64,000 nt of DNA, taken from an uncultured Chloroflexia bacterium (lineage in GTDB: Bacteria > Chloroflexota > Anaerolineae > Anaerolineales > UBA4823). Positions within the stretch are counted from its first letter, which is position 1. Each line of letters starts with the position of its first letter. The position numbers and the translations under genes are program-made. The DNA is taken from positions 292,392-356,391 of the forward strand of contig CAVPJC010000001.1 in NCBI GenBank assembly GCA_963705155.1, given 5' to 3'. Shown in pieces: positions 33,163 to 50,183 of this stretch. A model generated the notes under the pieces. The model did no database searches, had not been told where the DNA came from, and saw only the letters and a list, made by a program, of their open reading frames with translations.

Positions 33163-33269
33163 AAAAAAAAAACATGACGAAGGGCACTATTTTCATGTCA
33201 GGAAAACCTCTATGCTGATCTTGTCAAGGTCGTCCTCGCTCATTGCGCTGCATGCTGGAGGGAAAACTC

Positions 33270-36200
33270 ATGCATCACACGCCCGCCCGCCGCCTGACCC
33301 ACCTGATCCTGATCCTCTCGATGCTCCTGCCCGGACTGGCGCCCACGCCCACCCGGGCAGCTTCTTTGTACCAGGCCGGCGACGGCACGCCCACGCCCAG
33401 CGCCACACCGGAGGCGACTGAAACGCCCATCCCTTCCGAGACGCCAATTCCGGAAGTTACAGCGGAAGTCATCTCATCTACTCTGGAGATTCCATCACCG
33501 ACTGCCACACTGACGCCGACGTTGGATGTGACACCCACTCCCACGGCGACCGTGACACCTACGTTGCCCGCGCCAACCCCTATCATAACGACTACGAGCG
33601 TCCCAACTCCTGTGGAGACTGCGCCCGGTGGAGAAATCCTCGTCGCCGATCCTATGAGCCTGACCCTTAGTGCGGATGCTTCCCGTATCACTCCGGGCGG
33701 GGTGCTCAATCTATCCTGGCAGATCGACGGTTGGGCAGACAGTTATAAAGATGTATCTCTGGTCATCCAACCCCCTGCCGGTTTCAGCACTCTGGATGGC
33801 ACGCAGGGTGTTCTCGATGGACAGATCGGTCCCATTAGCCTTGCAGTGCTCTCTGCCGCTGATACGCTTCACTGGCAGATCCCGGCTGACCTGCCTGGTC
33901 CTTACACCCTGACCGCCATACTGAGCCAGGGCGGGAAAGCCATCACGACGCGCACAATTACCCTGCAGGAGACCGGCCTGACCCGCCTGCCTGTCGAAGG
34001 CGGAGTAGCCTCAGGATTAGGTGACCGAGTACGCGTCATTTTTCCCGCCCAGGTGGATGTCCAGATGCTGGATGTTCGCATCCGCCGACCGGTAGCTGCC
34101 TCCATGCCGCCCTACTCTCCCACCGGCGACCCTTTTGAGATCATCGCGCAGGCCAACGGCGAAGCCGTAGAAGCTTTTGACCCACCTCTCACCATCGAAG
34201 CGGCATACACCGGCTTGCGTCCCGCCCAGATCGCCTATTACGACCCTCTCCGGCAAGCCTGGCTGCCTCTCGAAACCGAATGGGATCAGGATGCCGGGGT
34301 GCTGCGCGCCCGGAGCAGCCACCTGACCGTCTTCGACACACCGGTCGTAGACTGGGAGACGGCCCGCACCCCCTCGGTGAAAGACTTCCAGGTCTCCCAG
34401 CAAACCGGGGCAGCCACGTACTCCTTCCCCATCTGGACCCCACCCGGCCTGGCCGGTTTGCAGCCAACATTGGCCCTGTCATACAACAGCCAGACCGCCG
34501 ACAGCGCCACCGCCCCCTACACTCAGGCTTCCTGGGTGGGCATGGGCTGGTCGCTGGATACCGGCTACATCCAGCGCAGCCAACACGCACCCGATCATGA
34601 TACCTACTCGCTGCTGGCGGGTGGGGTCAGCTCGAGCCTGCTGAAGGATAATACCGGCAAATACCACCTGGCCGACGAGAACTACTGGAAAGTGGAGTAC
34701 GATGCGACCAACGACAAATGGACGGCCTGGGATAAAAACGGAACGATCTACCGTTTCGGCAAGAACGCCAACAACACCTACGACGCCCGCGCCCGTTTCC
34801 CGATCTGCAACTCCAACGGAACCATTTCCATGCGAACCTGGAACTGGCCGCTGGTGGAAGTGGAGAACATCTTCAGCCAGAAACTGAGCTACACCTACGA
34901 TTTGACCGACACCAAACGCACCGATTTGTGTGACGATACTCGCACCACGCATCTGGCCGTCTACCCGGAGTATATCACCTACCCCAACGGCAAGTACCGG
35001 GTCAAATTCAATCTGGAAGAGCGCTACGACCACCGCCTGGAGTGGGAAGACAATAACGCTCAGACCTACTTCATGCACAAGCGCCTGAACACGATCGAGA
35101 TCCAACACAATGCGAGCGGAACCTGGCAGAGCGTACGCAGCTATGACCTGACTTACAACGCCGTCATCTTCCCCGGCTGGACATGGGATTACACCTACAA
35201 CGCCCGCACGTTCTCCCTGTCTGGCATCCAGGAAACCGGTCTGAACTCCGCCGCGCTGCCTGCCACCACCTTCAGCTATGCAGACGATCTGCACCTGACC
35301 CTGGCGGGCAATGGCTACGGCGGGAGCGTGGACTTCAGCTATGATCCCGTTTCGTGGTACGATCTCAGCAATGCTGAAGACCACATCCGCAAATATCATT
35401 TCGATCCAGGATCGGATGACTGCGATTCTTGGGACGGCGCCCAGTCTTCGTGTGACGCCCAGGAAGTCCTGCACATCGATGGCGAGGCGGTCCACCTTTT
35501 GCAGCCATCCGCGTTTGGGCCGGGCACAGCCTACAAGGTATCCGCCCGCATCTACAACGAGATCCAGACGGCGCAGAACGCCTCCATCGGTTTGCGCCAT
35601 GCCGCCAGCAGCAACAGCTACATCAGCGCATTGATCCCGGCTTACACATGGAAGGAATTCGAGGGGGTGGTGATCCTGCCTGCCGCTACGCAGTATGGCC
35701 GTGATTGGGAGTTTCGCCCGTTGATGGTGATGGCCTGCCCCAACTGCAAGGTGGAAGACTTCGAGATCACCTGGCTGCCCAGCCGCTACCGGGTAACGGC
35801 GCGCACCACCCACGACAGCGTCACCGGCGCCAGCCAGGTCTACCGCTACGAATACGACGACCCCGCCACCAACGACGCCGAGCACTCGGCCGCCGTGGCG
35901 GGCGAAGACCCGGAGGATGACGACGACCTGTATGATGATCCATATACGCAATACCGCGGCAATGCCATGAGCCGCGAGATTGGCCCGCTGGGAACGGACG
36001 GCACGCAGCGTGTGACCACCACCTGGTATGCCCAGGACGACGCCCGCAAGGGCCAGGCGCTGGGCACGCTGGTGGGCACGCAGTCCTACACCCAGACCTT
36101 CGAAGCCGACCAGTGGAGCGCCTACGCCAGTGACTGGAGCTACTGGAGCTCGAGGCAGATCGCACCGGCCTTCGAGCGCAAGAGCGGGGATGGCGCCCTT

Positions 36201-39200
36201 GTGGTCACCGAAGACTACGGCGAATGGAACAACACCGTGCACCGCAACGAGCACGCCGTCTCGGACGGAGAAGCCATCCTGGTGCAGTTCCAGATCACAG
36301 GCACCACCCCCGGCCAGTCCGAAGCGGTGCTGGCGCTGGAAGTGGGCGATTGGGGAGCCAGCTACCTGCGCTGGGGGGTGCAAGCCAACCTGGGCAGTGC
36401 ATTGTACGCCAGCTACTGCCTGGGAACGAGCTGCTACCACAACACTCTGGCCGATTTGAATTACTTCAAGAAAGGGGCCTGGTACAGCCTGCTGCTGGCG
36501 GTGGATGATGACCAGAAGTTCTTGATGCGCGTCTGGCCGCGCAGCGACCCCTCGGACGCTCGCGAGTACACCTTGAGCCACCCCAGCCTGCCGGGTAAGG
36601 ACTGGCGCTTTGCGGCCTACGCCAACCGCGCCCGGCTGCACCTGGACGAATACAGCGAAGGCAGGCTGTATTCACTCTCCACCACCGGCTATGACAGCGG
36701 CCTCGTCGCTCCCCTGGACGCCGCCTTCAGTGGCTTCCGGGATCTGGCGATCAACTGGACGCGCCCGGTGACCGCTTCGCAGATGAGCTTCAACGGCGAT
36801 GGAACCTGGATCGGCACGCGTACCATTTCTCTGTATGACCCCACCTACCAGAACGGAATCCAGTACGGCAACCAGACGGGTGTCGTCGAAGCCAGGTGGA
36901 GCGGCAGCGCCTGGCTGGATTACCGGGCTGTGCGCACCTGGTACTACCCCTACACCCAGAACGGCAAACACCTGGTGGGACTGCCGGCGGCGGTCAACCG
37001 CTACAAATGCGAGGACGCCGCCTGCGACTACGCCGATAGCGATCTGACCGCCTCGCAGTGGAACCTGTACGACGGGCAGAGCGGGTACTGGATCAGCCCG
37101 AGCAGCGGCAGGCTGACCGCCCAGCGCACAATGACCTGTTTTGCCGACGCCAACAAGGTATGTTATGCGACCTACCAGGCCAACCCAAGCTACGCCCTGT
37201 TCAGCGACCGTCAGTTCGAGTACGACGACTGGGGCAACCCGGTCAAGGTGAAAACCTCGCCGGACTACGGCTGGTTCCTGATGAGCTCGCCCTGGACCAG
37301 CCAACTGGCGAACACCAACCTGCGCGAAACCAGCTCGTGTTACGGCACAGCCAACCAACCCAGCGGCTGCACGGATGACGGCTACCACACCTACCGGCTG
37401 TGGGAGAAGAGCCCGCTGACGGCCAGCACAAACCAGACAGTCTACTGGTCGTATTCCGGTGCGCTGTGGCCCGGATCGAGCTACACCGGCTACAGCCTGG
37501 GCGTGCCGGTCAGCGAGACCGACCCCAACAGTGTAACCACCTGGGCCGAGTACGACGGCCTGGGACGCATGACCAAGGTGATCAAGCCCGGCGACAGCAG
37601 CGCCTACCCGACGCTGCAGGCGGTGTATCACGACGACTGGCAGCCCTTCCTGGTGGATGTGCACCAGCGCCTCACCGCGGGTACCGGCGCCACCTACAGC
37701 CAGCGCAAGCTCTACAACGGCCTGGGGCAGGTCATCCAGGTGCAGACGCCAGCGCGCCGAAGTCTCCGACAATGCCTGTTCCACGGATGCCGATACCAAC
37801 CCGGATGTCTGCGATCTGATCGTGGATACGGCTTACGACGGCTACGGGCAGGTCAATGCACAGACCGTACCCTACGCCCTGGACGACTGGTATTCGGGCA
37901 TGCCGGGGTATCCCACCCCCTCCGCGGGCAGAATTTCATCGGCAGCCCGCGCAACTACACCGCCACGGTCTACGACGTTCTGGGCCGCACGAACAGCGTG
38001 ACCGCCCCGGACGGGACCGAGCACGCTGACCGGCTACCCGGATACTTCTGCGGGCTATGCGGCTTACAACGAAGTGCGCCTGCAGGACGCCCGCGGCAAC
38101 ACCACGCGTACCATTTCGGACGTGTGGGGCCATGCCTATCAGGTCATCCCGCTCAATGGGAATAACGACGGCAGCCCGATCAACCCCACCGTGGCCTACA
38201 CCTACGATGCGCTCGACCGGCTTCTGACCGCCGCCCGCGGCGGAGCCACCGTCAGCCTGAGCTACGATTACGCCGGGCGGATGACGCAGCAGATCGACCC
38301 CGATCTGGGCACATGGGTTTATACTTATAACGCCATGGGAAACCCGACCAGCCGGAAAGACGCCCGTTGCAATGGCAGCAGTTGCGTGACGATCAACTAT
38401 GCCTACGACCACGCCAGCCGCCTGACGCAGAAGGGCTACAGCATCCCCACCGGGTTGAATGTGGCGGCAACCCCCGCGGCGACCTACTTCTACGACGCCG
38501 GGGGAGCGGCAGCCTACGCCATTGGCAGGCGCACCAGCATGACGGATGGCAGCGGCTCGACGACCTGGACGTATGACAGCCGCGGGCGCATGACCCAGGA
38601 GAGCAAGGTCATCAGTGGATCAGGCACCTTTGTGACCCAGTACACCTACAACTCCGCCGACCTGCCGGTAACGATGCGCTACCCGGCGAATGCCAGCGGT
38701 GGATTGGGTGAGACCGTCACCACCACCTACCTGCCGCAGAGACTGGTCAACAGCGTGATCGGCGCCAACACCTACGTCAAATCCAGCACCTACGACGCCG
38801 CCGGGCGGGTGGACGTGCGCCTGCTGGGCGACAGCAGCGGCACGGCAGTGGTCAAGACCGATTTCGATTACTTCGCCTGGAGCGACGTCAACGGCAACGG
38901 GCGGCTCAAACGGATCAAGTCGGAAGATGTGTCACCGTTGACCACGCTGCAAGACTTGCGCTATTACAACACATCCACCGGGGCATCCTTCTATGACGCC
39001 GTGGGCAACCTGACGCGCATCGACGACTACAAGAGCGGCGCGCCGCAAGGGCAGTATTTTGGTTACGACAACCTGTACCGTATCACCAGCGCCTACGCTT
39101 CGGGCGGGACTGGTGGAAACGGCGATTACACCACCGAGAGCTACAATTATGACGCCACAACCGGCAACCTCACCAGCAAGAGCACGGTGGGCAGCTACAG

Positions 39201-39992: not shown

Positions 39993-40048
39993 ATCCTCAA
40001 TCGTCTTTAATTAATACCGATGAAATTGCAGAAAAAGCTGGAACTGGT

Positions 40049-40447
40049 TTGGATATGACAAGTATAGCTCAAGGAGCTTTTGCATTAAAAGTTACGGATG
40101 CAATATTACCGGGTCCAGTTTTTGGTGTCATTATCAATTCAGGCATCCAAATACTACAAGACAGTGACCAAAATTTCAATCCGGATGAGGCCGTGTTACG
40201 GGTTGCTACCGCAGCTGCTGAAGGTGTTGCTTTGGATCTGGTGTCTACTTATTTTGGAGATGTTGGTGGTGCAGTTGGTATCGGTTTGGGGGCTGCTGTA
40301 GCACCAGGACCCGTTGCACCAATCATTGGGTTTGGGACTGGCTACTCAGTTGGTGCTGTGTCGAGTTATTTCAATACGAGAAACGTAATTGAAAATGTCA
40401 ACGAAACATATATTTTTCCAGCAATACATCAAATAACTGATAAGTAA
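40049..40447 (+). CDS. Gly/Ala-rich (glycine-zipper-like) protein; probably the frameshifted C-terminal toxin tip of the Rhs protein
   Basis: Its frame is open back to about 39943 and overlaps the Rhs frame across an A-run. It contains GDVGGAVGIGLGAAVAPGPVAPIIGFGTGYSVGAV. GC is low. Confidence 0.5.
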   Translation: MDMTSIAQGAFALKVTDAILPGPVFGVIINSGIQILQDSDQNFNPDEAVLRVATAAAEGVALDLVSTYFGDVGGAVGIGLGAAVAPGPVAPIIGFGTGYSVGAVSSYFNTRNVIENVNETYIFPAIHQITDK

Positions 40448-40514
40448 ATATTCAAGATAGTTTCGATTCCTATGCTCTGAGAATGCGATTTCAACAGGAA
40501 CGGAGATTGCACCA

Positions 40515-41195
40515 ATGGGTCATCTAATTATTTGCGCTCTAGCATCAGTTGCGCCTGGGTTGGGTTTCTGGTTACTTGGGGAGAGACGTCGGGGCACAAT
40601 CATCGCTAGTATTTTTGCTTTCTTTCTCTTTGGAAATTGGATTTTTGGCATTTTGGGATTTGGCTCAAGTACCAAAATATTACTTATTCTGCCTGTTGGT
40701 TTTTGGATTGTCCAACTATTGATTACTTTGGAAAGAATATATATGCGTTACCAACAAATAAAACATCCGGAAAAAGCAGCTGTTATTCCCAATAAAACCA
40801 ATATTGCAAATGACTTGACCAATTATCACCCATCCGTTCAGGCGGCATATCAAGTTGTTATAGCTCAACCAGGAATTGATCGTCAACTACTCCTAGCAGC
40901 AATATTTGGTATTCAAATATCTAGCCGAAAGGCATGGGTATATATTCCATACCGCATATTGTATTTGGGTCTGACACATGAATTTACAATAATAGTTGAA
41001 GCGGACAAACTTGGTACGCCGATGTTGATTGAACGCTTGGAAAACAGTAAAATTATAAATAAAAGTTATATCCAAGGTTCAATGAATGACCAATTAAAGC
41101 TTGAATTTAGAGATGGTGAAATTATCAACTTATTAGTAACAATACAACAACGTGCGGAGACCGCAGTGTTCGCATCTATGTTCATAGATGCATAA
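40515..41195 (+). CDS. Hypothetical membrane protein, candidate Rhs immunity protein
   Basis: 226 aa with 3 N-terminal TM helices and a soluble C-terminal domain. GC is very low (about 37%). It lies immediately downstream of the toxin tip. Confidence 0.45.
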   Translation: MGHLIICALASVAPGLGFWLLGERRRGTIIASIFAFFLFGNWIFGILGFGSSTKILLILPVGFWIVQLLITLERIYMRYQQIKHPEKAAVIPNKTNIANDLTNYHPSVQAAYQVVIAQPGIDRQLLLAAIFGIQISSRKAWVYIPYRILYLGLTHEFTIIVEADKLGTPMLIERLENSKIINKSYIQGSMNDQLKLEFRDGEIINLLVTIQQRAETAVFASMFIDA

Positions 41196-41201
41196 AAATT
41201 T

Positions 41202-41669
41202 ATGTCTATTCTCATCCTGTCCCGGCCAAACTTAACCAGTGCTCTGACCGTTACATCTGCTACTAATGGCAACTACAGCGAGAGCTACGATTACGACGCC
41301 GCCAGCGGCAACCCCTCCCAGAAAGCGGGTGGAAATTACACCTACGATATGGTCAAAAAACATGCCGTGCGCCGCGTAAACGCCAGCGGCGGCGCCTCCA
41401 AAACCATCCAGGTGCGGGCGTATTCCACGCCGTGCAGCGATGGCGTGCGCGCCACGATGGAGCTGCGCGTCAATGGCAGCCTGGTAACCACCTGGAGCAA
41501 CGTGGCTGTGGCCTGGACAACCCACAGCGCCAACACTCCCCTGTCGGGTAAAGACCAGATCGAAGTGGTGTTTACCAACGACTGCTACAACGGCGGTTAT
41601 GACCGCAACCAGTTTTCACACGAATGTCAGGCAGGGTATGGTTCCGGGGGATTGGAGAGCGGGTTGTGA
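41202..41669 (+). CDS. Orphan Rhs-repeat fragment joined to a carbohydrate-binding-module-like domain
   Basis: NGNYSESYDYDAASGNPSQKAGGNYTYDMVKKHAV parallels GNGDYTTESYNYDATTGNLTSKSTVGSYSYG...HPHAV of the main gene (about 39120-39260). Next comes IQVRAYS...MELRVNGSLVTTW...IEVVFTNDCYNGGYDRN (CBM-like). The 3' end is unclear. Confidence 0.45.
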   Translation: MSILILSRPNLTSALTVTSATNGNYSESYDYDAASGNPSQKAGGNYTYDMVKKHAVRRVNASGGASKTIQVRAYSTPCSDGVRATMELRVNGSLVTTWSNVAVAWTTHSANTPLSGKDQIEVVFTNDCYNGGYDRNQFSHECQAGYGSGGLESGL

Positions 41670-41806
41670 TTTGGCTCGGGAAACCGGTATGAAATATTTG
41701 TTGGGTTGGTGGGCAGGCTTTTCCTGCGTATGGCCGTCGTTTTTTGCCCACCAATCCAACCTACGACTATTGACTCTAGACTGATGATACGTTATCCTAT
41801 ACACAA

Positions 41807-43186
41807 ATGTATAGAATGAGTGAACTTAACCAATTGAACCGCAAGATATTTCACACCAACGACCTGGCTGTTTTGTGGAAGATAACCAATCGGCACAATC
41901 TGTATATGACCATCACCCGCTACATTGACAGGGGGGTGCTGTTTCCAATCTATAAAGGCATGTACGCTACGGTTTCCCCGGCCTCCCTGAACCCCCTGGA
42001 ACTGGGCCAGGCTGTTATTCACCGGTACACCTACCTGACGACCGAATCGGTCCTCGCGCAGGCGGGGATTATCTCTCAATTGGTCTACGATTATACTTTT
42101 GTCGCCGATCTGTCCAAGCGCGTCTCAGTCGGAACCTGGTCTTTTCGGTATCGCAAGCTCAAAGATATTTATCTCCATAATCCTGCTGGTATCGTCGATC
42201 ACAGTGGAGTTTTTATCGCTACTGCAGAACGAGCCGTGGCGGATTTGCTTTATTTCAACCCTAAATATCACTTTGATGTTCCGGAAAGCATCGATTTCGA
42301 AAAGGTCAAGTTAATCCAACAAGAAGTCGGATATCCTCCTGTTAAACTGTTTAATGTACAATGCCATGGTATAAGCCGTTTTTCGATGTTGGTAGGGAAC
42401 GCTGATCGCTTGACAACAACCCACAGAAAACAGCTCCTCCTGCAGCGCCTGGATGAGATCGGCGCCTCCCTGGCCCGCTCCTCCGGCGCCCTGGCCCTGA
42501 TCGGCCTGGGTTCGGTGGGCCTGGAACAGGAGCGCCTGGACGCATACTCCGATCTCGACTTCTTCGTCATCGTCGAGACCGGCTGCAAGGCCGCCTTCCT
42601 GGACGACCTGTCCTGGCTGAGCGCCATCCACCCGGTCGCCTACCGTTTCAAGAATACCGCCGATGGCTACAAGCTGCTCTTCGCCGACGATATCTTCTGC
42701 GAATTTGCCATTTTTGAGCCGCACGAGCTGCAGGCCGTGCCCTTTGCCGCAGGCCGCATCGTCTGGAAGGCGCCCGGCGTCAGCGATGACATCGGCATCC
42801 CCGCCCGGCCTCCCGGGGCGCAAGCACCCGCCGCGTTGGAATGGCTGCTGGGGGAAGCCCTCACCTGCCTGTACGTCGGTATGGGGCGTTACCGGCGCGG
42901 TGAAAAACTCTCGGCCCAGCGTTTCATCCAGCATTACGCCGTCGACCGCCTGCTGGAGTTATCCAGCCGGGTGGAAAGCGAAGCGCCCGCCTTGCGGGAC
43001 GCGTTTGCCCCGGAGCGGCGCTACGAGCAGCGCTTTCCGCAAACCGCCCGCCTGCTGCCGCAGTTCGTCCAGGGCTACGCCGCCATCCCCCAATCGGCCC
43101 TGGCGATCCTCGATTTCCTCGACCGGCACTTTGAGGTGGATGCCGCCCTCAAAACCAAAATCCGCCAACTGTGCCTGCCAGAGTAA
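41807..43186 (+). CDS. AbiEi-like antitoxin/wHTH domain fused in frame to a nucleotidyltransferase (ANT(6)/KNTase-like) domain
   Basis: The N-terminus is IFHTNDLAVLWKITNRHNLYMTITRYIDRGVLFPIYKGMYA (AbiEi-type). The C-terminal half is ALIGLGSVGLEQERLDAYSDLDFFVIVE (the GS..x..D.D NTase motif) plus a helical domain. There is no stop between the two halves. GC jumps at about 42380-42420. Confidence 0.6.
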   Translation: MYRMSELNQLNRKIFHTNDLAVLWKITNRHNLYMTITRYIDRGVLFPIYKGMYATVSPASLNPLELGQAVIHRYTYLTTESVLAQAGIISQLVYDYTFVADLSKRVSVGTWSFRYRKLKDIYLHNPAGIVDHSGVFIATAERAVADLLYFNPKYHFDVPESIDFEKVKLIQQEVGYPPVKLFNVQCHGISRFSMLVGNADRLTTTHRKQLLLQRLDEIGASLARSSGALALIGLGSVGLEQERLDAYSDLDFFVIVETGCKAAFLDDLSWLSAIHPVAYRFKNTADGYKLLFADDIFCEFAIFEPHELQAVPFAAGRIVWKAPGVSDDIGIPARPPGAQAPAALEWLLGEALTCLYVGMGRYRRGEKLSAQRFIQHYAVDRLLELSSRVESEAPALRDAFAPERRYEQRFPQTARLLPQFVQGYAAIPQSALAILDFLDRHFEVDAALKTKIRQLCLPE

Positions 43187-43229
43187 CGATTTCTGCTGCC
43201 CATGCGTGCGCCGCCAGGGGGCTCAGGGC

Positions 43230-45092
43230 TCAACCGCCACCAGCACCGCCCTGCACCACCCTGCGCCAGCGGTATGCGCCGTCCGCCTCGTCATAGCCCT
43301 GGCAGGTGATCAGCGTGACCCACGCCCGTTCCTCGTGCCGCAGCACCTTGAGCTGGTCGGGAGAGACCATGCTGTTCTCGCGCACCTCGTAGATATAGCG
43401 CTGCCCCCAGGCATGGATGATCACCCGGTCGCCCCATTGCAAAGTTTGCAGGTTGGCAAACGGCCCCGGGCTGCCATCCGCCAGGGTGGAATGCCCGGCC
43501 AGCCCGCTGTTTCCCTCCCAGGTGGGATAGGCGGTCCCTTCCAGGTATCCGGCTTCGCCCCCCAGCCAGCGCACATCCCAGCCGCTGCCGCTCTTTGGCA
43601 CCCCCAGGATGGCCATCTTTTGGCCCAGCGCAGGGATTTCCAGGCTCATTTCATCCTGCTGAGAATAGGCCAGGGCAGCGGGCTGCGCCGGCAGAGGGGT
43701 GTGCACATCGGGCGCAAAACCCGTGGCCGGCAGCTGCACCGCCCCCAGCAGGTTTAAAAACGCCTCACCGGCGCGTGTTTTGGCTTCGAGGTTGCGCCCG
43801 CTGGCCCCGGCGACAAACCAGTCGCGCGAAAGGGCCACCGACTTGCCAAACAGGTCATTCTCGCCTGCCGGGTCGGTGACGGCGCGGGTCTGCATGTTCC
43901 ACGCGCCTTTGCTCTTTTTGAAAATATACACCGCCCCGGCGCCATTGTTACCCGCCTGAACGGCCCCATCGGCCCCGACCACTACCGTGTCGCCGTAGAT
44001 ATCCACCGCCTGGCCGAGCCGCTCAAAAACCTGGGCGCCCTGCGCCGCCAGCATGGCTTCCTCCACCCATTCGTCCCCCCGGTCGCTGAATACGTAGGCT
44101 GCCCCCGCGCTGGTGACCTGCCCCCCGCCCAGGTCGGGATCGGCATGATACGCCCCCACCACGATCGTCTTTCCATGGATTGCCAGTGAATTGCCAAAAG
44201 CATCCCCGGCTCGACCGTTTTCCGCTTCCAGCCGGGCTTCGCTTTGCCATGTTTTTCCGCTGCGCCGGAACACCCACACCTTCCCCGGCCCGCTCTCGCC
44301 CGTCAGGTTGAACTGCGGCGCGCCCACGCCGATCAAATCGCCCTGTACCGCCACCGACGTGCCAAAATAATCGCCCAGCCACGGGTCAGGCGGCAGAAGT
44401 CGGGCCTGCTGGCTCCAGTTTTTTCCGCTGCTGCGGTAAAAAACATACGCTGCGCCCACGTCGATCAGGGTACCCATGTCCTTCGTCTCGGCTGCCACCA
44501 CCACCGTGGATTTGTCAACCGCCACCCCTGAGCCAAATGAGTCGTCTTCTGCCGGGTCGGCGGCAGTGAGAATGGCCTGCTGCACCCACTTCCCGCTGCT
44601 GCGGGCGAAAACGTAGGCCGCGCCGGCGTCATCCAACCACCCGTCCTCCTGATCCTCATCCGCCAGGTCGACGCCGGTGGCGCCCACCACGATGGTATTG
44701 CCGCTGATTCCCACGGATACGCCAAAGGTATCGCCTGCCGCGGCGTCATCAGCCGTCAACCTGGCTTCCAGAACCCAGGTATTGCTGCTGCGCACATAAA
44801 CATAGGCTGCCCCGGCATTGCTCACCGCTCCCCCGCCCAGGTCGGGATCGGCGTTGCGCGCCCCGATGACCGCCGTGTTGCCGTCGATCGCCACCGCGCT
44901 GCCGAACTCATCCAGGCTTTTTCCGTCGGGCGCAGCCAGCGACCACTGCTGCACGACCCCCAGGGTTGGGACCGCGCTGCCCGACGCCTGCCAGCCAGAG
45001 GCCAGCCCCGCCTGCGCCGCAGGCAGCAGCGCCAGCAGCAGCAAAACAGATATGGATAGGTATCGTTTAACCAGATTCAGGGTTGCAGCCAT
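43230..45092 (-). CDS. Secreted seven-bladed FG-GAP-like beta-propeller fused to a C-terminal sortase domain
   Basis: GGAGGTG precedes ATG 45092, and a signal peptide follows. Seven repeats of the form FG.SVA..G.T.VVGA ... GAAYVF are present. LPATG is at 43719-43733. The sortase motifs are LEIPALG, GNSGLAGHS, TLITC (Cys codon 43302-43304) and YRWRRVV. Confidence 0.8.
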   Translation of the reverse strand: MAATLNLVKRYLSISVLLLLALLPAAQAGLASGWQASGSAVPTLGVVQQWSLAAPDGKSLDEFGSAVAIDGNTAVIGARNADPDLGGGAVSNAGAAYVYVRSSNTWVLEARLTADDAAAGDTFGVSVGISGNTIVVGATGVDLADEDQEDGWLDDAGAAYVFARSSGKWVQQAILTAADPAEDDSFGSGVAVDKSTVVVAAETKDMGTLIDVGAAYVFYRSSGKNWSQQARLLPPDPWLGDYFGTSVAVQGDLIGVGAPQFNLTGESGPGKVWVFRRSGKTWQSEARLEAENGRAGDAFGNSLAIHGKTIVVGAYHADPDLGGGQVTSAGAAYVFSDRGDEWVEEAMLAAQGAQVFERLGQAVDIYGDTVVVGADGAVQAGNNGAGAVYIFKKSKGAWNMQTRAVTDPAGENDLFGKSVALSRDWFVAGASGRNLEAKTRAGEAFLNLLGAVQLPATGFAPDVHTPLPAQPAALAYSQQDEMSLEIPALGQKMAILGVPKSGSGWDVRWLGGEAGYLEGTAYPTWEGNSGLAGHSTLADGSPGPFANLQTLQWGDRVIIHAWGQRYIYEVRENSMVSPDQLKVLRHEERAWVTLITCQGYDEADGAYRWRRVVQGGAGGG

Positions 45093-45112
45093 TTTACTCA
45101 CCTCCACCTAGC

Positions 45113-46049
45113 TCACCGGGTTGCCAGCGCCAGAAAAACATCTTCCAGCGTGGGTTCCACCTGTTCAACACGTACAGCCTGCAGGCCCGCCTCGTTCAGG
45201 CGATCCTCCAAAACCTTTGCGGTTACATCTGCCGGAGCGATGGCCCGCAGATGGTCACCGGTCAGTCCGGCGCGGAAAACACACGGACAACTTTCCAGAG
45301 CGTTCAAGGCTACCAACAGCGGCGGTTCCTGCTCATGATCCGCCTCGCCAACAAACACATCCCATGCCAGGCCCGGCAGCGCCGTTTCCTTCAAAGCCGA
45401 GGGTGTATCCATCGCCAGCAGCCGGCCATCGCGCATGATGCCCACCCGCCCGCAGTATTCGGCCTCATCCATGTAATGCGTGGTCACCAGGGCTGTCACG
45501 CCCTGCCCCACCAGCGTCATAGATCAGATCCCAGAAGGCCCGCCGCGCCGTCGGGTCGACGCCGCTGGTGGGCTCATCCAGAAACAGCAGGCGCGGCCGG
45601 TGCACAATCGCCGTCCCCAGCGCCAGTCGCTGCCGCCAGCCTGCCGACAGGCTGCCCACCAGCTCCTTTTGCAGGGCGTTTAGACCCACCAGGTCCAGCA
45701 CCTCGTCCAGCCGCTGGCGGCGTGTCTCACCGTAAACACCGGCATAGAACGCCAGGTTTTCTCCCACGGTCAGATCATGGTACAGGGCGAACTTCTGCGA
45801 CATGTACCCCACCTGGGTGCGGATGCGCTCCGCATCCCGCACCACATCGTACCCCAGCACGCTCGCCTGCCCTGCGGTGGGGCGCAGCAGCCCCAGCAGC
45901 ATGCGGATGGTGGTGGTCTTGCCCGAGCCGTTCGGCCCCAGGTAACCCACCACCTCGCCCTGCCCCATCTGAAACGTGACGTGATCCACGGCGACGAATT
46001 CACCGAAGTTTCGCGTCAGGTCCTTGGTGATGATGACATCTTCAGGCAT
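45113..46049 (-). CDS. ABC transporter ATP-binding protein (one frame break near 45510)
   Basis: MPEDVIITKDLTRNFG..., GPNGSGKTT, LSAGWRQRL and LLFLDEP, then ...VTALVTTHYMDEAEYC in ORF 45113..45520. Confidence 0.8.
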
Positions 46050-47012
46050 TGTTGTTTTCCAGCAAATCGATAAAAACATCTTCCAGCTGGGCCGGAACCA
46101 GGCGCAGTTGGATGATTTCGCCGCCCGCCTCGGGGATGCGCTGGCTCCAGCCGCTCCATCACCGCCTGGGCGCAGCCTGTGCGCACATGCAAATGGATCC
46201 GGTCGCCAAACATGTGCGCATCCTGCACATCTTCATCCTGGCTGGGCCAGGCCGGCGCAGCAGCGCCAGCGGGCTGGCCGCGCAGCTCCAGGATGCGCCC
46301 ATCCAGGCGGTGTCCGCAGACCCGACGGCGTGCCTTCCACCAGCAGCCTGCCGTTCTGCATGAACCCCACCCGCCGGCAGCGGGCCGCTTCGTCCATATA
46401 GGGGGTGCTCACCAGCACCGCCACGCTCTCTTCGCCTTTCCGGCGCCGCCAGGCGGATGATGAGCTGCCAGAAATCCTGGCGTGTCACCGGATCCACGCC
46501 GGTGGTGGGCTCGTCCAGCAGCAGCACGCGCGGGCGGTGCACCAGCGCGGCCGCCAGGCCCAGCTTTTGCTTCATCCCGCCGGAGAGCTTCCCCGCCCGG
46601 CGGTCGATAAAGGCGTCCAGCCCCACAAAGCGCAGGATCTCCATGCAGCGCGGCCGCCACTCGGCGGCGGGCAAGGCCGCGCACCTCGGCAAAGAAGCGG
46701 ATATTCTCCATGACGGTCAGGTCCTCGTACAATGAAAAGCGCTGCGGCAGGTAGCCAATCTGAGCGCGGGCCTGCTCGGTCTGGCGCAGTACATCGTACC
46801 CGCCGATCTCAATCTGCCGGAGCCGGCCGCCGTGCCGGCCGGTCGGGCCGCAGCGCGCCGCACAGCAGCCGCAGGGTGGTGGTCTTGCCGGCGCCATCCG
46901 GCCCGACCAGGCCGTAAATTTCGCCGGACGCCACCTGCAGGCTCAGATCCACCACAGCCTGTGTGGCGCCAAAGGATTTATTCAGTGAAACAGCGTTGAT
47001 CAGGCTGTTCAT
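46042..47012 (-). pseudogene. ABC transporter ATP-binding protein, 5 or more frame breaks as assembled
   Basis: The pieces sit in 5 frames: [15 protein letters not shown]...GPDGAGKTT; [20 protein letters not shown]; [33 protein letters not shown]; [14 protein letters not shown]; and [14 protein letters not shown]. The reconstructed stop is at 46042-46044, overlapping the next start. Confidence 0.75.
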
Positions 47013-47019
47013 AAGCGGG

Positions 47020-48374
47020 TTATTTGAAAATCACATCCACCGGCATGCCCGGTTTCAACTTGCCTTCCGGGTTTGTAATTGCCAGTTGGATGGCATATAC
47101 GGTGGTGCGCCGGCCTTCCTCCGTTTGCACATTGCGCGGTGTGAACTCCGCCTGGTCGGCGATACGCGCCACCACAGCTGAGAATATCTCGCCTGGGAAC
47201 AAATCGATCTCTCACCTCCACCGCCTGGCCCAGGCTGACCTCACCGTAGCGGTCTTCGGGCACGTAAACCGTGATGGTCAGGTCATCCAGGCGCGCCAGC
47301 GTGAGCAGCGGCGCCCCGGCACAGCCACCTCTCCTGGCTCCACAGAGCGGGTGAGCACCACCCCCTCCACCGGGGCCTTGATCGTCAGCTTGCCGATCTG
47401 TGTCTCGATCACCTGCAGCGGCAGAACGGGCTACCTCCACCTGCGCCTGGGCGGCTGCCAGCTGCTCCGGGCCTGGCTCGGCCTGTGCTGCCGCCAGGCT
47501 GGCTTCGGCTATCTATCAGGCGCGCCTGCGCCAGGGCCAGCGCATCCGGGTCGATGCCCGTCCTGCAGCTCTGCGTAGCTGCCGCTGCGAATCTGCCAGC
47601 CTGCGCCTCCGCCAGGGCCACATCGGCGTTTAGCCAGGGACAGCTCATACTTGTTGGCTGTGCCCAACCAGGTTGTTATATCGTTCCACCACGGCATCGT
47701 ACTGCTTTTGCGCTGCCGGCTAGCTTGCGCCTGCAGAACGGCGCGGGTCAGGTTGCTTTGATCTTTGTTTTCATATGGGCTCAAAATCTTCCTGCGCCTT
47801 TTCCAGCTTATCCTGGGCAATCACCACCGAGGCCCAGGCCGCATCGATATCCGCCGGGTTGGCCTGGGTACTGACATTATCCAGGTACTGCTGCGATTTA
47901 TCGCGGGCTTTGTCAATCGAGGCGATCGTTTGCTAGGGTCTGGGCTTCAGCCAGACCTGGGCTGATCGTACAGCGCCTGCAGGGCCTGCTGTGCATTGGT
48001 CAGCTCCATCTCGGCAGAAGCCATCGCCAGGGCGCGCTGCTCGTCGGAAAGCCCTTTGGCAGCCAGCTCGTAGTTGGCCTGCGCCTGGCGCCAGAGCAGC
48101 CTGGGCCTGGGCCAGCTGCGCCTGCAGCAAGGCGCCATCGAAACGCACCAGCACATCACCGGCCTGCACTGCATCGCCTTCTTGAGCCAGCACTTCGAGC
48201 ACATGCCCCGCCAGCTCGGGGGCTACCAACACCTGGATGGCTTCGATGGTGCCCGAAGCTGCAAGTTCACCAGACACGGCATCCGTGCGGTTGTTGTTCA
48301 GATACCACCAGCCGGCCGCAGCCAGGGCAATCAGTAAAATGACGGGTGCAATTCTTCGTCGGGTTGGGATGCAT
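47020..48374 (-). pseudogene. HlyD-family periplasmic adaptor (membrane-fusion) protein, multiple frame breaks as assembled
   Basis: GGAGGA precedes ATG 48374. By hand translation, a TM anchor (RRIAPVILLIALAAAGWWYL) sits in a shifted frame. Other pieces are GTIEAIQVLVAPELAGHVLEVLAQEGDAVQAGDVLVRFD and the C-terminus FTPRNVQTEEGRRTTVYAIQLAI...GMPVDVIF. Confidence 0.75.
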
Positions 48375-48426
48375 AAACTTCCTCCGTTCTACATCGTCAA
48401 TGGTGAGCGGGTTGTCGCAGCCTGTC

Positions 48427-49562
48427 TCAATCCAGGCGCTTTCGGAAACGCAGCGACGCCAGGGTCATGATACTCAGGCCAAATATCGCCAGGGCAATAA
48501 TCTCATTGCGCAGTGCGGCCGATGCCAACGCCTTTCAGCATCAGCGTGCGGATGATCACCAGGTAGTAGCGCAGCGGCATCAGATACGAAATCCACTGCA
48601 GCAATTTGGGCATGGCTTCGATGGGAAAGAAGAAACCGGACAGGAACATGCTGGGCAGCAGAGTCATCCACACCGTCAGCATGGCTTCCTGCTGGGTGTT
48701 GGCGATGGTGGAGGCCAGCAGACCGATGCCCAGGCTGGAGAGCAGGAACAGACCCGATAGCGCCAGGATCAGCCACAAATCGCTGCGGATGGGCACCTTG
48801 AACCACCAGGAACCCACCGCCAGCACCTCCAGCGTGTTCAAGAAGGCCAGGATCACGTAAGGCAGCAATTTTCCAACCACCAATTCCCAGGGGCGGATCG
48901 GTGTGACGATCAACTGCTCGATCGTGCCACGCTCCGCTCGCGCACAATCGCCGTGGCGGTCAGGATGGAAGTGAGGGCAAACAGGATCATGCCGATCACA
49001 CCCGGGATCATGAAATAGGCGCTCACCAGGTCGGGGTTGTACCACACCTGGGTGCGCACCTCGACGGGGGGCTGCACCGCCGTGGTTTGGCCGCGCCGCG
49101 GCCATGCGCTCCACCAGGATGCGTGTGGCATGCTGCTGGCCGATAAACTGCGCCGCCGAAAGCGCTGTGGATGCCACGGTGGGATCGCTGCCATCCAGCA
49201 CAAAAGCCACCTGGGCCACCTCACCGGCCTGCAGGCGGCTGCCGTAATCCGGCGGGATGATCATCCCGGCGCGTGCTTTGCCGCTATCGATCAGGTCGCG
49301 CAGCTCATCCTCGGAATCCACATCGTAGGCGATGCTGAAGTAGTCGGCGGCGCGGTAGGCATCCAGCAAAGCGCGCGCTTCCGGGCTGCGGTCCTGGTTA
49401 TAGACTGCCAGGGGCACGTTGCGCACATCGTTGGTGGCAGCAGTACCCCAGCAGCACCAGCTGCATCACCGGGATCACCAGCACCAGGATCAGCGTGCGC
49501 GGATCGCGCAGGATCTGGATGAATTCTTTGCGTACCAGTGAAACCAGACGGGAATTGATCAT
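48427..49562 (-). pseudogene. ABC-2-type efflux permease, multiple frame breaks as assembled
   Basis: MINSRLVSLVRKEFIQILRDPRTLILVLVIPVMQLVLLGY (hand translation from ATG 49562), then ATNDVRNVPLAVYNQD..., then the ABC-2 membrane domain ...IANTQQEAMLTVWMTLLPSMFLSGFFFPIEAMPKLLQWISYLMPLRYY. The start overlaps the tetR stop (ATGA). Confidence 0.75.
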
Positions 49563-50183
49563 GTTACCTCCGGCGCGGCAGACCCATTTTTTATAATACC
49601 GTACAGATAAATATCCACAAACGTATCCAGAGCCCGGTCGTGCATCTCTCGGGGGAACTGGTTTCCCACCAGCAGCTCGGTCATCACATAGGAAAAGAAT
49701 AAACCCACAAAAGTGCGCACCAGCATCATGGCCGGGATCGGGCGCAGTTCGTCCCTGGAGTCGACAAACCGCTGCACAAAGTCTAAAATCTGGGGGAAAA
49801 CGATCTGGAATAGAGCCGGGACATGCTGCCCATTAAACTCAACCACCTCAATAAACATCAGGTTGAGCAGATCGGTGCGCTTCCCCAGGCCTTCCACCAA
49901 CCGCCGGGCGGCGTCACGCACGAACTCATCCATGCTGCCGCCCTCAGCCGCGTTAATCAGCGGCAGCACCTCAAGATAGGGGTGCCGTTCCAATAATACG
50001 GTTTTGAAGATCTTCGTCTTTGCCAGAAAAATGGTTATAAATACTGCCCAGGGCAATGCCGGTCTCCTGGGCAATCTGGCGCATGGAGGTGCCGTGATAG
50101 CCTTTCAGCATAAACAGGTTATACGCCGCCTGGAGGATCTCCGTGCGGGTGCGCTCACCGCGTGTGATCGTTTCTTCAGACAT
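49559..50183 (-). CDS. TetR/AcrR-family transcriptional regulator (one frame break near 50012)
   Basis: The N-terminal HTH is RTRTEILQAAYNLFMLKGYHGTSMRQIAQETGIALGSIYNHF (ORF 49971..50183). The ligand domain is ORF 49559..50074. Removing one A at about 50012 gives ...GKDEIFKTVLLERHPY. Confidence 0.8.

Follow-up and report, generated by a model that had tools for sequence, protein, structure and literature searches.

What does a complete sortase do at the C-terminus of a secreted protein that already carries an LPXTG motif of its own? The question is raised by a gene on the reverse strand (positions 43230-45092) of a 64,000-nucleotide (nt) stretch of DNA from an uncultured Chloroflexia bacterium, contig CAVPJC010000001.1 of assembly GCA_963705155.1; this whole stretch is referred to below as the window. 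Sortases are classically trans-acting, membrane-anchored, multi-turnover enzymes, and they are major tools for protein ligation. An earlier note on the same DNA had read the gene product as a signal peptide, seven FG-GAP repeats, an internal LPATG motif and a sortase domain in one polypeptide, and had suggested that the enzyme may carry its own recognition motif at the domain junction. With moderate confidence, we propose that the product is a self-sorting surface protein, in which the C-terminal module would cleave its own LPATG motif in cis between Thr and Gly and transfer the passenger in front of it to an acceptor amine that probably belongs to the cell envelope. Residues are numbered throughout on the 625-amino-acid form that begins at a GTG codon, which is also the numbering behind the "C602" of the earlier note.

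A sortase and its predicted recognition motif in one secreted polypeptide

Sequence reading and Pfam searches confirmed the domain order. Seven FG-GAP_2 stretches were matched (E 3.3e-82), and the Pfam Sortase family (PF04203) covers residues 489-619 with an E value of 1.5e-19 and a score of 70.4 bits against a cut-off of 26.6. The N-terminus, MAATLNLVKRYLSISVLLLLALLPAAQA followed by Gly, is that of a typical Sec signal peptide, and the aligned orthologues have comparable basic-hydrophobic N-termini, mostly with A-x-A-like ends. The LPATG codons (ctg ccg gcc acg ggt) were read at exactly the place given by the earlier note, 43733-43719, and the four sortase landmarks that it listed (LEIPALG, GLAGHS, TLITC and RWRRV) were all found in the sequence. 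Its spacing of about 25 residues between motif and sortase also holds, with 25 residues lying between G463 and L489. On the 3' side of LPATG there is no hydrophobic membrane-spanning segment or basic tail, as had been said; the C-terminus is the sortase barrel, and the protein ends 10 residues beyond Arg615.

The same fusion is found well beyond the window. A search with the whole protein returned about 100 clusters that share the FG-GAP_2 plus Sortase architecture at 45-71% identity and come from many metagenomes, with annotations that read only "hypothetical" or "LPXTG-site transpeptidase (sortase) family protein". The gene is a single stop-free frame in three species-representative genomes of the same family. 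In 40 FG-GAP-sortase orthologues (43-68% identity to the query), L459, P460, G463, F464, P466, H539, C602 and R615 never vary, and conservation of T462 is at least 90%. The earlier note had named poor conservation of LPATG in orthologues as one result that would speak against its idea; the motif is invariant or nearly so, both in these 40 orthologues and in 148 modules that follow unrelated passengers. A Protein Atlas look-up returned only generic "sortase domain-containing" clusters, with scores of 0.85, and gave no lead.

The C-terminal module is carried by many passengers

Residues 450-625 (P0001) were searched against 1.84 billion cluster representatives (clusters at 50% identity), which yielded 4473 matching representatives, 1317 of them with E<1e-30. 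In the best 150 matches, proteins of 225-4130 amino acids, the module lies at the extreme C-terminus, and the alignments begin at query position ~9-10, the Leu of LPATG. All 150 contain [L/I/V/A]-P-x-T-G-F, and a strict pattern, ..x[TSA]G[FYW..].P, is present in 142 of the 150, 167-202 residues (median 171) before the C-terminus. A transmembrane (TM)-like segment within the last 200 residues was found in none of these 150 proteins, so that the lack of a hydrophobic helix after the motif is a property of the relatives as well. The last ~170 residues, comprising [L/I/V/A]PxTGF(A)P, a fixed-length linker and the sortase, are a C-terminal module.

Conservation within this module begins abruptly at the motif. 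In an alignment of 148 modules, residues 452-458 carry 0.4-0.8 bits of information each, compared to 3.05 bits at L459, and the values that follow are 4.32 at P460, 1.15 at x461, 3.96 at T462, 4.32 at G463, 4.32 at F464, 3.47 at A465 and 4.0 at P466. The P, G and F are invariant across modules and the T of LPxTG is 95% conserved, while the third position is free and is occupied by A, E, D, G, N, S, Q and others; judged by sequence, a free x at this position reads as the signature of a sortase recognition pentapeptide. The spacing from G463 to P492 is 27-28 residues in 141 of the 148 modules, and T470, L472, P473, Q475, P476 and Y481 are strongly conserved, a pattern which indicates that the linker is no floppy spacer. 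His539, Cys602 and Arg615 are invariant in all 148.

What precedes the module is highly varied. The ten full-length members that were scanned carry FG-GAP_2, cadherin, Chlam_PMP repeats, DUF11/DUF7933/DUF7507/CARDB, Calx-beta, a DUF5122 propeller, FG-GAP_3 or MBG with Big_3_5, which is the usual repertoire of sortase-anchored adhesins, and 66 of 100 representatives that start with Met have a signal-peptide-like N-terminus. As the same module stands behind many unrelated passengers, the propeller is best regarded as cargo and not as an accessory of the enzyme, and the alternative raised in the earlier note, of a propeller that recruits substrates or binds the wall, is disfavoured for the same reason. 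No passenger-less module was seen among small open reading frames (ORFs) of relatives with a match starting near residue 446-466, of which three of seven loci were read; those three (L116, L118 and L121) encode a second sortase type without LPxTG. One relative, genome G057, has genes (L027, L031, L032) in which LPxTG is repeated in tandem, two or three times at intervals of a few residues, immediately ahead of the module, for example FTLPSTGDDFTLPQTGFAPD, and at L031 two such tandem-motif genes lie in tandem.

The module is almost restricted to the window's own order in the genomes sampled. With a 10-row alignment as query, 426 stretches encoding it were found in species-representative genomes, and the named records among the matches belong to Anaerolineales, Anaerolineaceae, Anaerolinea, Levilinea, Leptolinea, Bellilinea and Ornatilinea, together with one metagenome-assembled genome labelled Dehalococcoidia. 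In an even sample of 200 genomes from the phylum, 13 encode the module at E<=1e-35, all 13 of them in that order (12 of 13 members of family f15 and 1 of 5 of family f16), while the ~180 genomes sampled from other orders gave no match. Copy number varies widely. The genome of the window has one copy and no other occurrence of LP.TGF.P, four module genes (frames of 650-3616 amino acids) are present in each of two cultured species, Levilinea saccharolytica KIBI-1 and Ornatilinea apprima P3M-1, and G057 has at least 11 module ORFs of 579-2649 amino acids. A contig of another relative (G048:C134:11000-27600) holds at least seven sortase-domain matches in ~17 kb, in frames of 330-2230 amino acids, and resembles a sortase island.

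Predicted position of the motif on the sortase barrel

In a full-length AlphaFold2 (AF2) model built from 40 sequences, the propeller (residues 48-457) is predicted with a local confidence score (pLDDT) mostly above 90 and ~28 strands, and integrin alpha propellers take all of the first 50 places among its Foldseek matches (E about 1e-15 to 4e-18). A separate AF2 model of the 181-residue module, built from 148 sequences, has a pLDDT of 91.4, with values of 88-95 in the motif and linker, both of which are predicted to be ordered on the sortase barrel. Among solved structures, sortases are closest to the module model, with Foldseek E values of about 1e-11 and VIA Z scores of up to 17.6. The best VIA match is 3tbe_C (Z 17.6, root-mean-square deviation 2.6 Å over 141 residues), Z scores of 15-17 were obtained to classes A, C, D, E and F, and the eight-stranded beta-barrel of the sortase fold is present in the model.

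The extent of these alignments differs among classes. For structures of classes A, D, E and F, the alignment does not begin before model residue ~30-40, whereas lid-bearing class C sortases and the SrtA of B. anthracis align from model residues 8-13: 4g1h over model 12-180 and chain 81-236, 4g1j_B over model 8-181 and chain 83-244, 3o0p from model residue 11 and chain residue 80, and 2w1j_A from model residue 13 and chain residue 56. The paper reporting 4G1H (lid D84-P85-F86) and 4G1J (lid D90-P91-Y92) describes the lid as a pseudo-substrate and shows its overlap with the LPA of the LPAT* analogue in the complex with S. aureus SrtA, where the two prolines coincide (PMC3493515). If the first aligned residues are ungapped, L459-P460-A461 (module residues 15-17) appear to fall on the D-P-F/Y of the lid in both mappings, and the motif would then occupy the substrate groove in the orientation of a substrate. 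The earlier note had proposed modelling as a means of locating the motif relative to the active site; with the deep alignment, the model places it in an ordered position on the barrel, with L-P-A apparently at the class C lid.

A two-chain prediction of the linker against the barrel weakly supports this placement, with a median score of 0.35 (runs of 0.81, 0.35 and 0.29) and a best control of 0.00; contact agreement was at least 80% and the partner pLDDT at least 51, with alignments of our own making. Among 80 solved complexes, 58 reach the mark used, as do 2 among 110 mismatched pairs, and it is reached with a score of <=0.60 by 7 of the 80 complexes and by both mismatches. The pass may stem from the predictor's memory of similar solved complexes.

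Sortase class

Profile, catalytic triad and fold all identify the domain as a sortase; the TIGR01076 (sortase_fam) model, with a cut-off of 39.35, gave 39.5 bits with the whole protein and 42.9 with the module. The class C model NF033745 gave 47.8 bits for the whole protein and 51.6 for the module against a cut-off of 160, and scores likewise stayed below the cut-offs of the other NCBIfam class models: class E (46.8 against 160), class D (37 against 165), SrtD (38.2 against 140), class F (28.3 against 166) and GN (30.5 against 158), no class A or B model being listed. Indeed, none of the three sortases in this genome reached a class-specific NCBIfam cut-off. The D-P-(F/W/Y) lid of class C is absent, the residues apparently at its position being the L-P-x of LPxTG, and so is the class C C-terminal TM anchor, both here and in the last 200 residues of the 150 relatives. 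Of the tripartite sorting signal of classical substrates, only the LPXTG element is present, and the hydrophobic segment and basic tail are missing.

Other sortases and sorting signals in the same genome

Besides the studied gene, the genome encodes two further sortase domains. One, on contig C4 (L001), is an ordinary TM-anchored sortase of 305 amino acids, and a conventional TM-anchored enzyme is also present in most relatives. The other, on contig C19 (L002, 676-1866), is itself part of a fusion: a single ORF encodes a DUF11-like passenger, LPGTG, a hydrophobic helix, RARR, a second helix, a linker and a sortase. The topology predicted from this sequence is the one that would result from placing a classical type II sortase behind a classical substrate. 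Fusions of the C19 type recur without stop codons in eight other genera of the same family (L018-L025) and, given their presence in this genome as well, translational fusion of substrate and sortase is recurrent in the lineage. Set beside them, the studied fusion looks like a version that has done away with both membrane segments.

The search for LPXTG-tailed substrates that the earlier note had proposed showed such substrates to be scarce. Only two convincing classical ones were found in the genome, namely the C19 fusion and a 185-amino-acid protein on contig C20 (L115, 2404-2961), which combines an N-terminal TM helix with a Thr/Pro-rich stretch and an LPSTGF-TM-RRLRTAN tail. No second clean, free-standing sorting signal was found in the genome, and the Gly of the C20 motif is followed by Phe, as in the module.

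Proposed mechanism and alternative explanations

In the proposed mechanism, the propeller-sortase protein would be exported through its N-terminal Sec signal peptide, which would then be removed. Once outside the membrane, the ~170-residue module would fold with its own LPATG-GFxP segment in the substrate groove, positioned there by the fixed-length linker. Cys602 would attack the Thr462-Gly463 bond of the same chain, or that of a neighbouring identical chain, to give a propeller-LPAT-thioacyl-enzyme, and the thioester would be resolved by an amine acceptor, most likely a component of the cell envelope (for example, a peptidoglycan precursor or a stem peptide). The propeller would be left covalently attached, and the sortase domain, now starting with GFAP, would be released after a single turnover. 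Such a module would replace the hydrophobic helix and basic tail as well as a separate membrane-bound sortase. The suggestion in the earlier note that the enzyme carries its own recognition motif is supported by the conservation of that motif and by its predicted order in the deep-alignment model.

Several observations weigh against this mechanism. Signal-peptide cleavage would leave the protein without a membrane anchor and with no obvious route to lipid II, and an enzyme used once per substrate molecule is costly. Residues 458-485 are disordered (pLDDT <50) in the 40-sequence full-length model, so that docking of the motif was seen only with the deep alignment, and it may be the predictor's learned echo of lid-bearing sortase structures. 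The lid mapping, in turn, derives from alignment ranges and concerns the first aligned residues only. Finally, the last strand of the barrel is probably out of frame in the window; if the extra G responsible is genuine and not a sequencing error, this copy may be impaired.

The same data can be read in other ways. The LPxTG could be an uncleaved pseudo-substrate lid that auto-inhibits a trans-acting sortase, with the N-terminal part, here the propeller, serving to tether or target the enzyme. Under an ungapped alignment start the motif does sit at the class C lid, a known regulatory pseudo-substrate (PMC3493515), and class C sortases are the nearest solved structures, but class C lids retain only D-P-aromatic, whereas the modules retain the full L-P-x-T-G, including the scissile T-G, with x free. 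In addition, the N-terminal parts are diverse adhesin-like arrays of up to ~4000 amino acids, which resemble cargo and not a targeting device, and the genome has very few free LPXTG substrates; we regard a lid of this kind as unlikely. It is similarly improbable that the motif is processed in trans, either by the housekeeping sortase of contig C4 or by neighbouring copies, which would build covalent, pilus-like polymers of the passenger. The genome and most relatives do have a conventional TM-anchored sortase, the only clean classical substrate likewise carries LPSTGF, the closest structures are pilin polymerases, and some passengers (DUF11, Big, Cna-like) are pilin-like. A precursor without a TM segment and basic tail, however, would lack the means to stay at the membrane until a housekeeping sortase could act on it, a fixed linker length with conserved linker residues would be needless for recognition in trans, and the catalytic triad of the fused domain itself is invariant. 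Moreover, no Lys is invariant or even 90% conserved among the 40 FG-GAP orthologues, so the propeller passenger has no evident pilin-type acceptor, which weighs against pilin-like self-polymerization.

Self-cleavage could also end in hydrolysis, making the sortase a removable pro-domain or maturation device that frees a soluble propeller into the medium. Sortases hydrolyse the acyl intermediate when a nucleophile is unavailable, and the lack of a membrane anchor once the signal peptide is removed fits such an outcome. Release, however, would need no enzyme, as a stop codon after the passenger would suffice, and the retention of a 170-residue transpeptidase with an invariant triad on many different cargoes argues for a ligation product; we consider hydrolytic release very unlikely. 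An assembly artefact, in which an indel joined separate substrate and sortase genes, was rejected as virtually impossible. The neighbouring operon does contain ~9 or more frameshifts, and one lies near the end of this gene, but the same architecture occurs in ~100 independent clusters from many samples and in one open frame in three genomes of the same family, and the 25-residue junction is too short for a TM segment, a tail or a second start. 

A broader claim, for which we see an even chance, is that LPxTGFxP-linker-sortase is a new sortase class, a portable C-terminal sorting unit complete in itself, which would act as a single-turnover "auto-sortase", cut its own chain and ligate its own passenger to the envelope independently of the membrane sortase.

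Gene boundaries, reading frame and genomic neighbourhood

The ORF extends from 43230 to 45107 on the reverse strand with the GTG start. The ATG at 45092 is the likelier start, as it gives 620 amino acids, identical to the protein on record (P0002), and has a GGAGG core 8 nt before it, and 43230-45092 is therefore likely the gene, in agreement with the coordinates of the earlier note. Two of its details depend on the other start: the active-site Cys is present but becomes Cys597 when counted from the ATG, and the 5-nt gap reported to the upstream gene presupposes the GTG, with 20 nt separating the ATG from the upstream stop codon. At the other end of the gene, alignments of orthologues and modules give a family C-terminus of R-x-V-V-R-A-V-L-V-x-V, compared to RRVVQGGAGGG and a stop codon in the window. 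Removal of one G from the run at 43249-43251 yields AVLVAVEP and a stop codon and restores the C-terminal strand of the family, so the last nine codons are probably out of frame. A promoter and terminator scan found nothing relevant to the gene that exceeded the shuffled expectation. Feature coordinates are collected in Table 1.

Table 1. Features of the propeller-sortase gene (window positions; residues in GTG-start numbering).
Feature	Positions	Strand	Basis
Whole gene (likely extent): signal peptide, FG-GAP_2 propeller, LPATG, linker, sortase	43230-45092	-	ORF, Pfam, P0002
Shine-Dalgarno-like GGAGGT (GGAGG core), 8 nt 5' of the ATG at 45092	45100-45105	-	Direct sequence reading
Sec-type signal peptide, residues 6-33, ending LLPAAQA before G	45009-45092	-	Orthologue N-termini; cleavage site predicted
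Seven-bladed FG-GAP_2 beta-propeller (passenger), residues ~48-457	43737-44966	-	Pfam, AF2, integrin alpha matches
LPATG, residues 459-463, predicted sortase recognition motif; putative scissile bond T462-G463	43719-43733	-	Sequence, conservation
Conserved fixed-length linker, residues 464-487 (F464, P466, T470, L472, Q475, P476, Y481), predicted to pack on the barrel	43647-43718	-	Alignment, module model
Sortase catalytic domain, residues 488-625, and stop codon	43230-43646	-	PF04203; closest solved structures are sortases, Z 15-17.6
Catalytic His539 (cat)	43491-43493	-	Invariant in orthologue and module alignments
Catalytic Cys602 (tgc) in TLITC	43302-43304	-	Invariant in orthologue and module alignments
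Catalytic Arg615 (cgc)	43263-43265	-	Invariant in orthologue and module alignments
Probable +1 G indel in the G run 43249-43251; alternative frame AVLVAVEP, stop codon 43223-43225	43223-43251	-	Family C-terminal consensus

Upstream on the same strand lies an operon (45113-50183) for TetR, an ABC-2 permease, a HlyD/YknX-like protein and two ABC ATPases. The efflux genes that the earlier note placed there are present, but the operon is broken: each gene is split by at least one frameshift, ~9 or more in 5 kb, which points to either an indel-prone assembly or a decaying operon. The operon is syntenic with the locus of a relative (L004, 60% identical), where the order TetR-ABC2-HlyD-ABC-ABC-sortase recurs. 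That TetR/ABC efflux order is absent at L005, which has unrelated neighbours, and within the ~1.5-kb flanks of L007-L009. A functional link to the efflux operon was rejected on these grounds and, as the adjacency is not conserved, the neighbourhood is treated as incidental.

On the other side of the gene, the GC content falls to 0.447 at 40001-42000, compared to about 0.60 in the rest of the window, and this DNA may have been acquired. The low-GC region holds a CBM60-like ORF (41202-41669) and is followed by an ORF of 459 amino acids (41807-43186) without a Pfam match. The mechanical ORF list of the window also includes one of 1640 amino acids on the forward strand (33243-38165).

Comparison with known systems

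No description of a natural substrate-sortase fusion was found in the searchable full-text literature, which omits most subscription journals, and the module apparently represents a large, undescribed family of Anaerolineales surface proteins. If the proposed mechanism holds, with the enzyme acting as the C-terminal "tail" of the protein that it cleaves, the family would represent a way of sorting bacterial surface proteins that is new, spread over more than 1000 clusters with cargo of up to ~4000 residues, and would explain how the envelope is decorated in filamentous Anaerolineales, which is now poorly understood. The idea is directly testable, as two cultured species have four such genes each.

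The closest structural likeness is to class C sortases (SrtC1 and SrtC2 of pilus island 1 (PI-1) in group B Streptococcus; 4G1J, 4G1H), which share the beta-barrel and the His-Cys-Arg triad and give the best structural matches (Z 16-17.6). In these enzymes, as is predicted for the module, a segment of the same chain N-terminal to strand 1 lies in the substrate groove, with its Pro at the position of the LPXTG proline (PMC3493515). Their lid, however, is D-P-(F/Y/W) and is not cleaved, whereas the modules have the full L-P-x-T-G-F-x-P. Class C enzymes also have a C-terminal TM anchor, N-terminal helices, separate pilins and pilus operons, while the present module has no TM segment, stands at the C-terminal end of the protein presumed to be its substrate, and reaches 48-52 bits where the class C cut-off is 160. 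Under the auto-sortase reading, the class C pseudo-substrate lid and a true cis-substrate would be two states of one evolutionary theme, and a self-cleaving module would be the natural counterpart to the idea of the lid as a pseudo-substrate.

With classical LPXTG sorting, the family shares the pentapeptide and its conservation pattern, adhesin-type repeat cargo and export by a signal peptide. It differs in that the sortase itself stands where the hydrophobic helix and basic tail would be, so that enzyme and substrate are stoichiometric and in one chain, and in the conservation of the residues after Gly (F-A-P). The C19-type fusions (L002, L018-L025) likewise have substrate and sortase in one ORF, in the same lineage and with similar DUF11-type cargo. 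Unlike the module, they retain a complete classical signal, with the motif LPGTGG, and the sortase's own membrane anchor; their sortase is 30-39% identical to the module and would remain in the membrane after cleavage, able to turn over.

Engineered fusions provide a precedent for the chemistry. In His-SrtA-LPETG-target constructs (Mao's method, BISOP), sortase and LPXTG are likewise in one polypeptide, and self-cleavage between T and G has been demonstrated (PMC2901362). Those constructs are artificial and run in the order enzyme-motif-cargo, so that the cargo is the product on the Gly side; in the present family the acyl side carries the cargo, and the cargo would itself be ligated. The module is also a possible source of compact self-ligating tags for protein engineering.

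By analogy only, the logic proposed here is that of Hedgehog and Hint-type autoprocessing. There, a C-terminal domain makes a thioester at the junction, passes the N-terminal domain to a nucleophile and is discarded, although the fold and the chemistry (an N-to-S acyl shift with cholesterol as acceptor) are unrelated to those of sortases. If the module works as proposed, the sorting of these surface proteins would follow a logic comparable to that of autotransporters or of Hedgehog autoprocessing.

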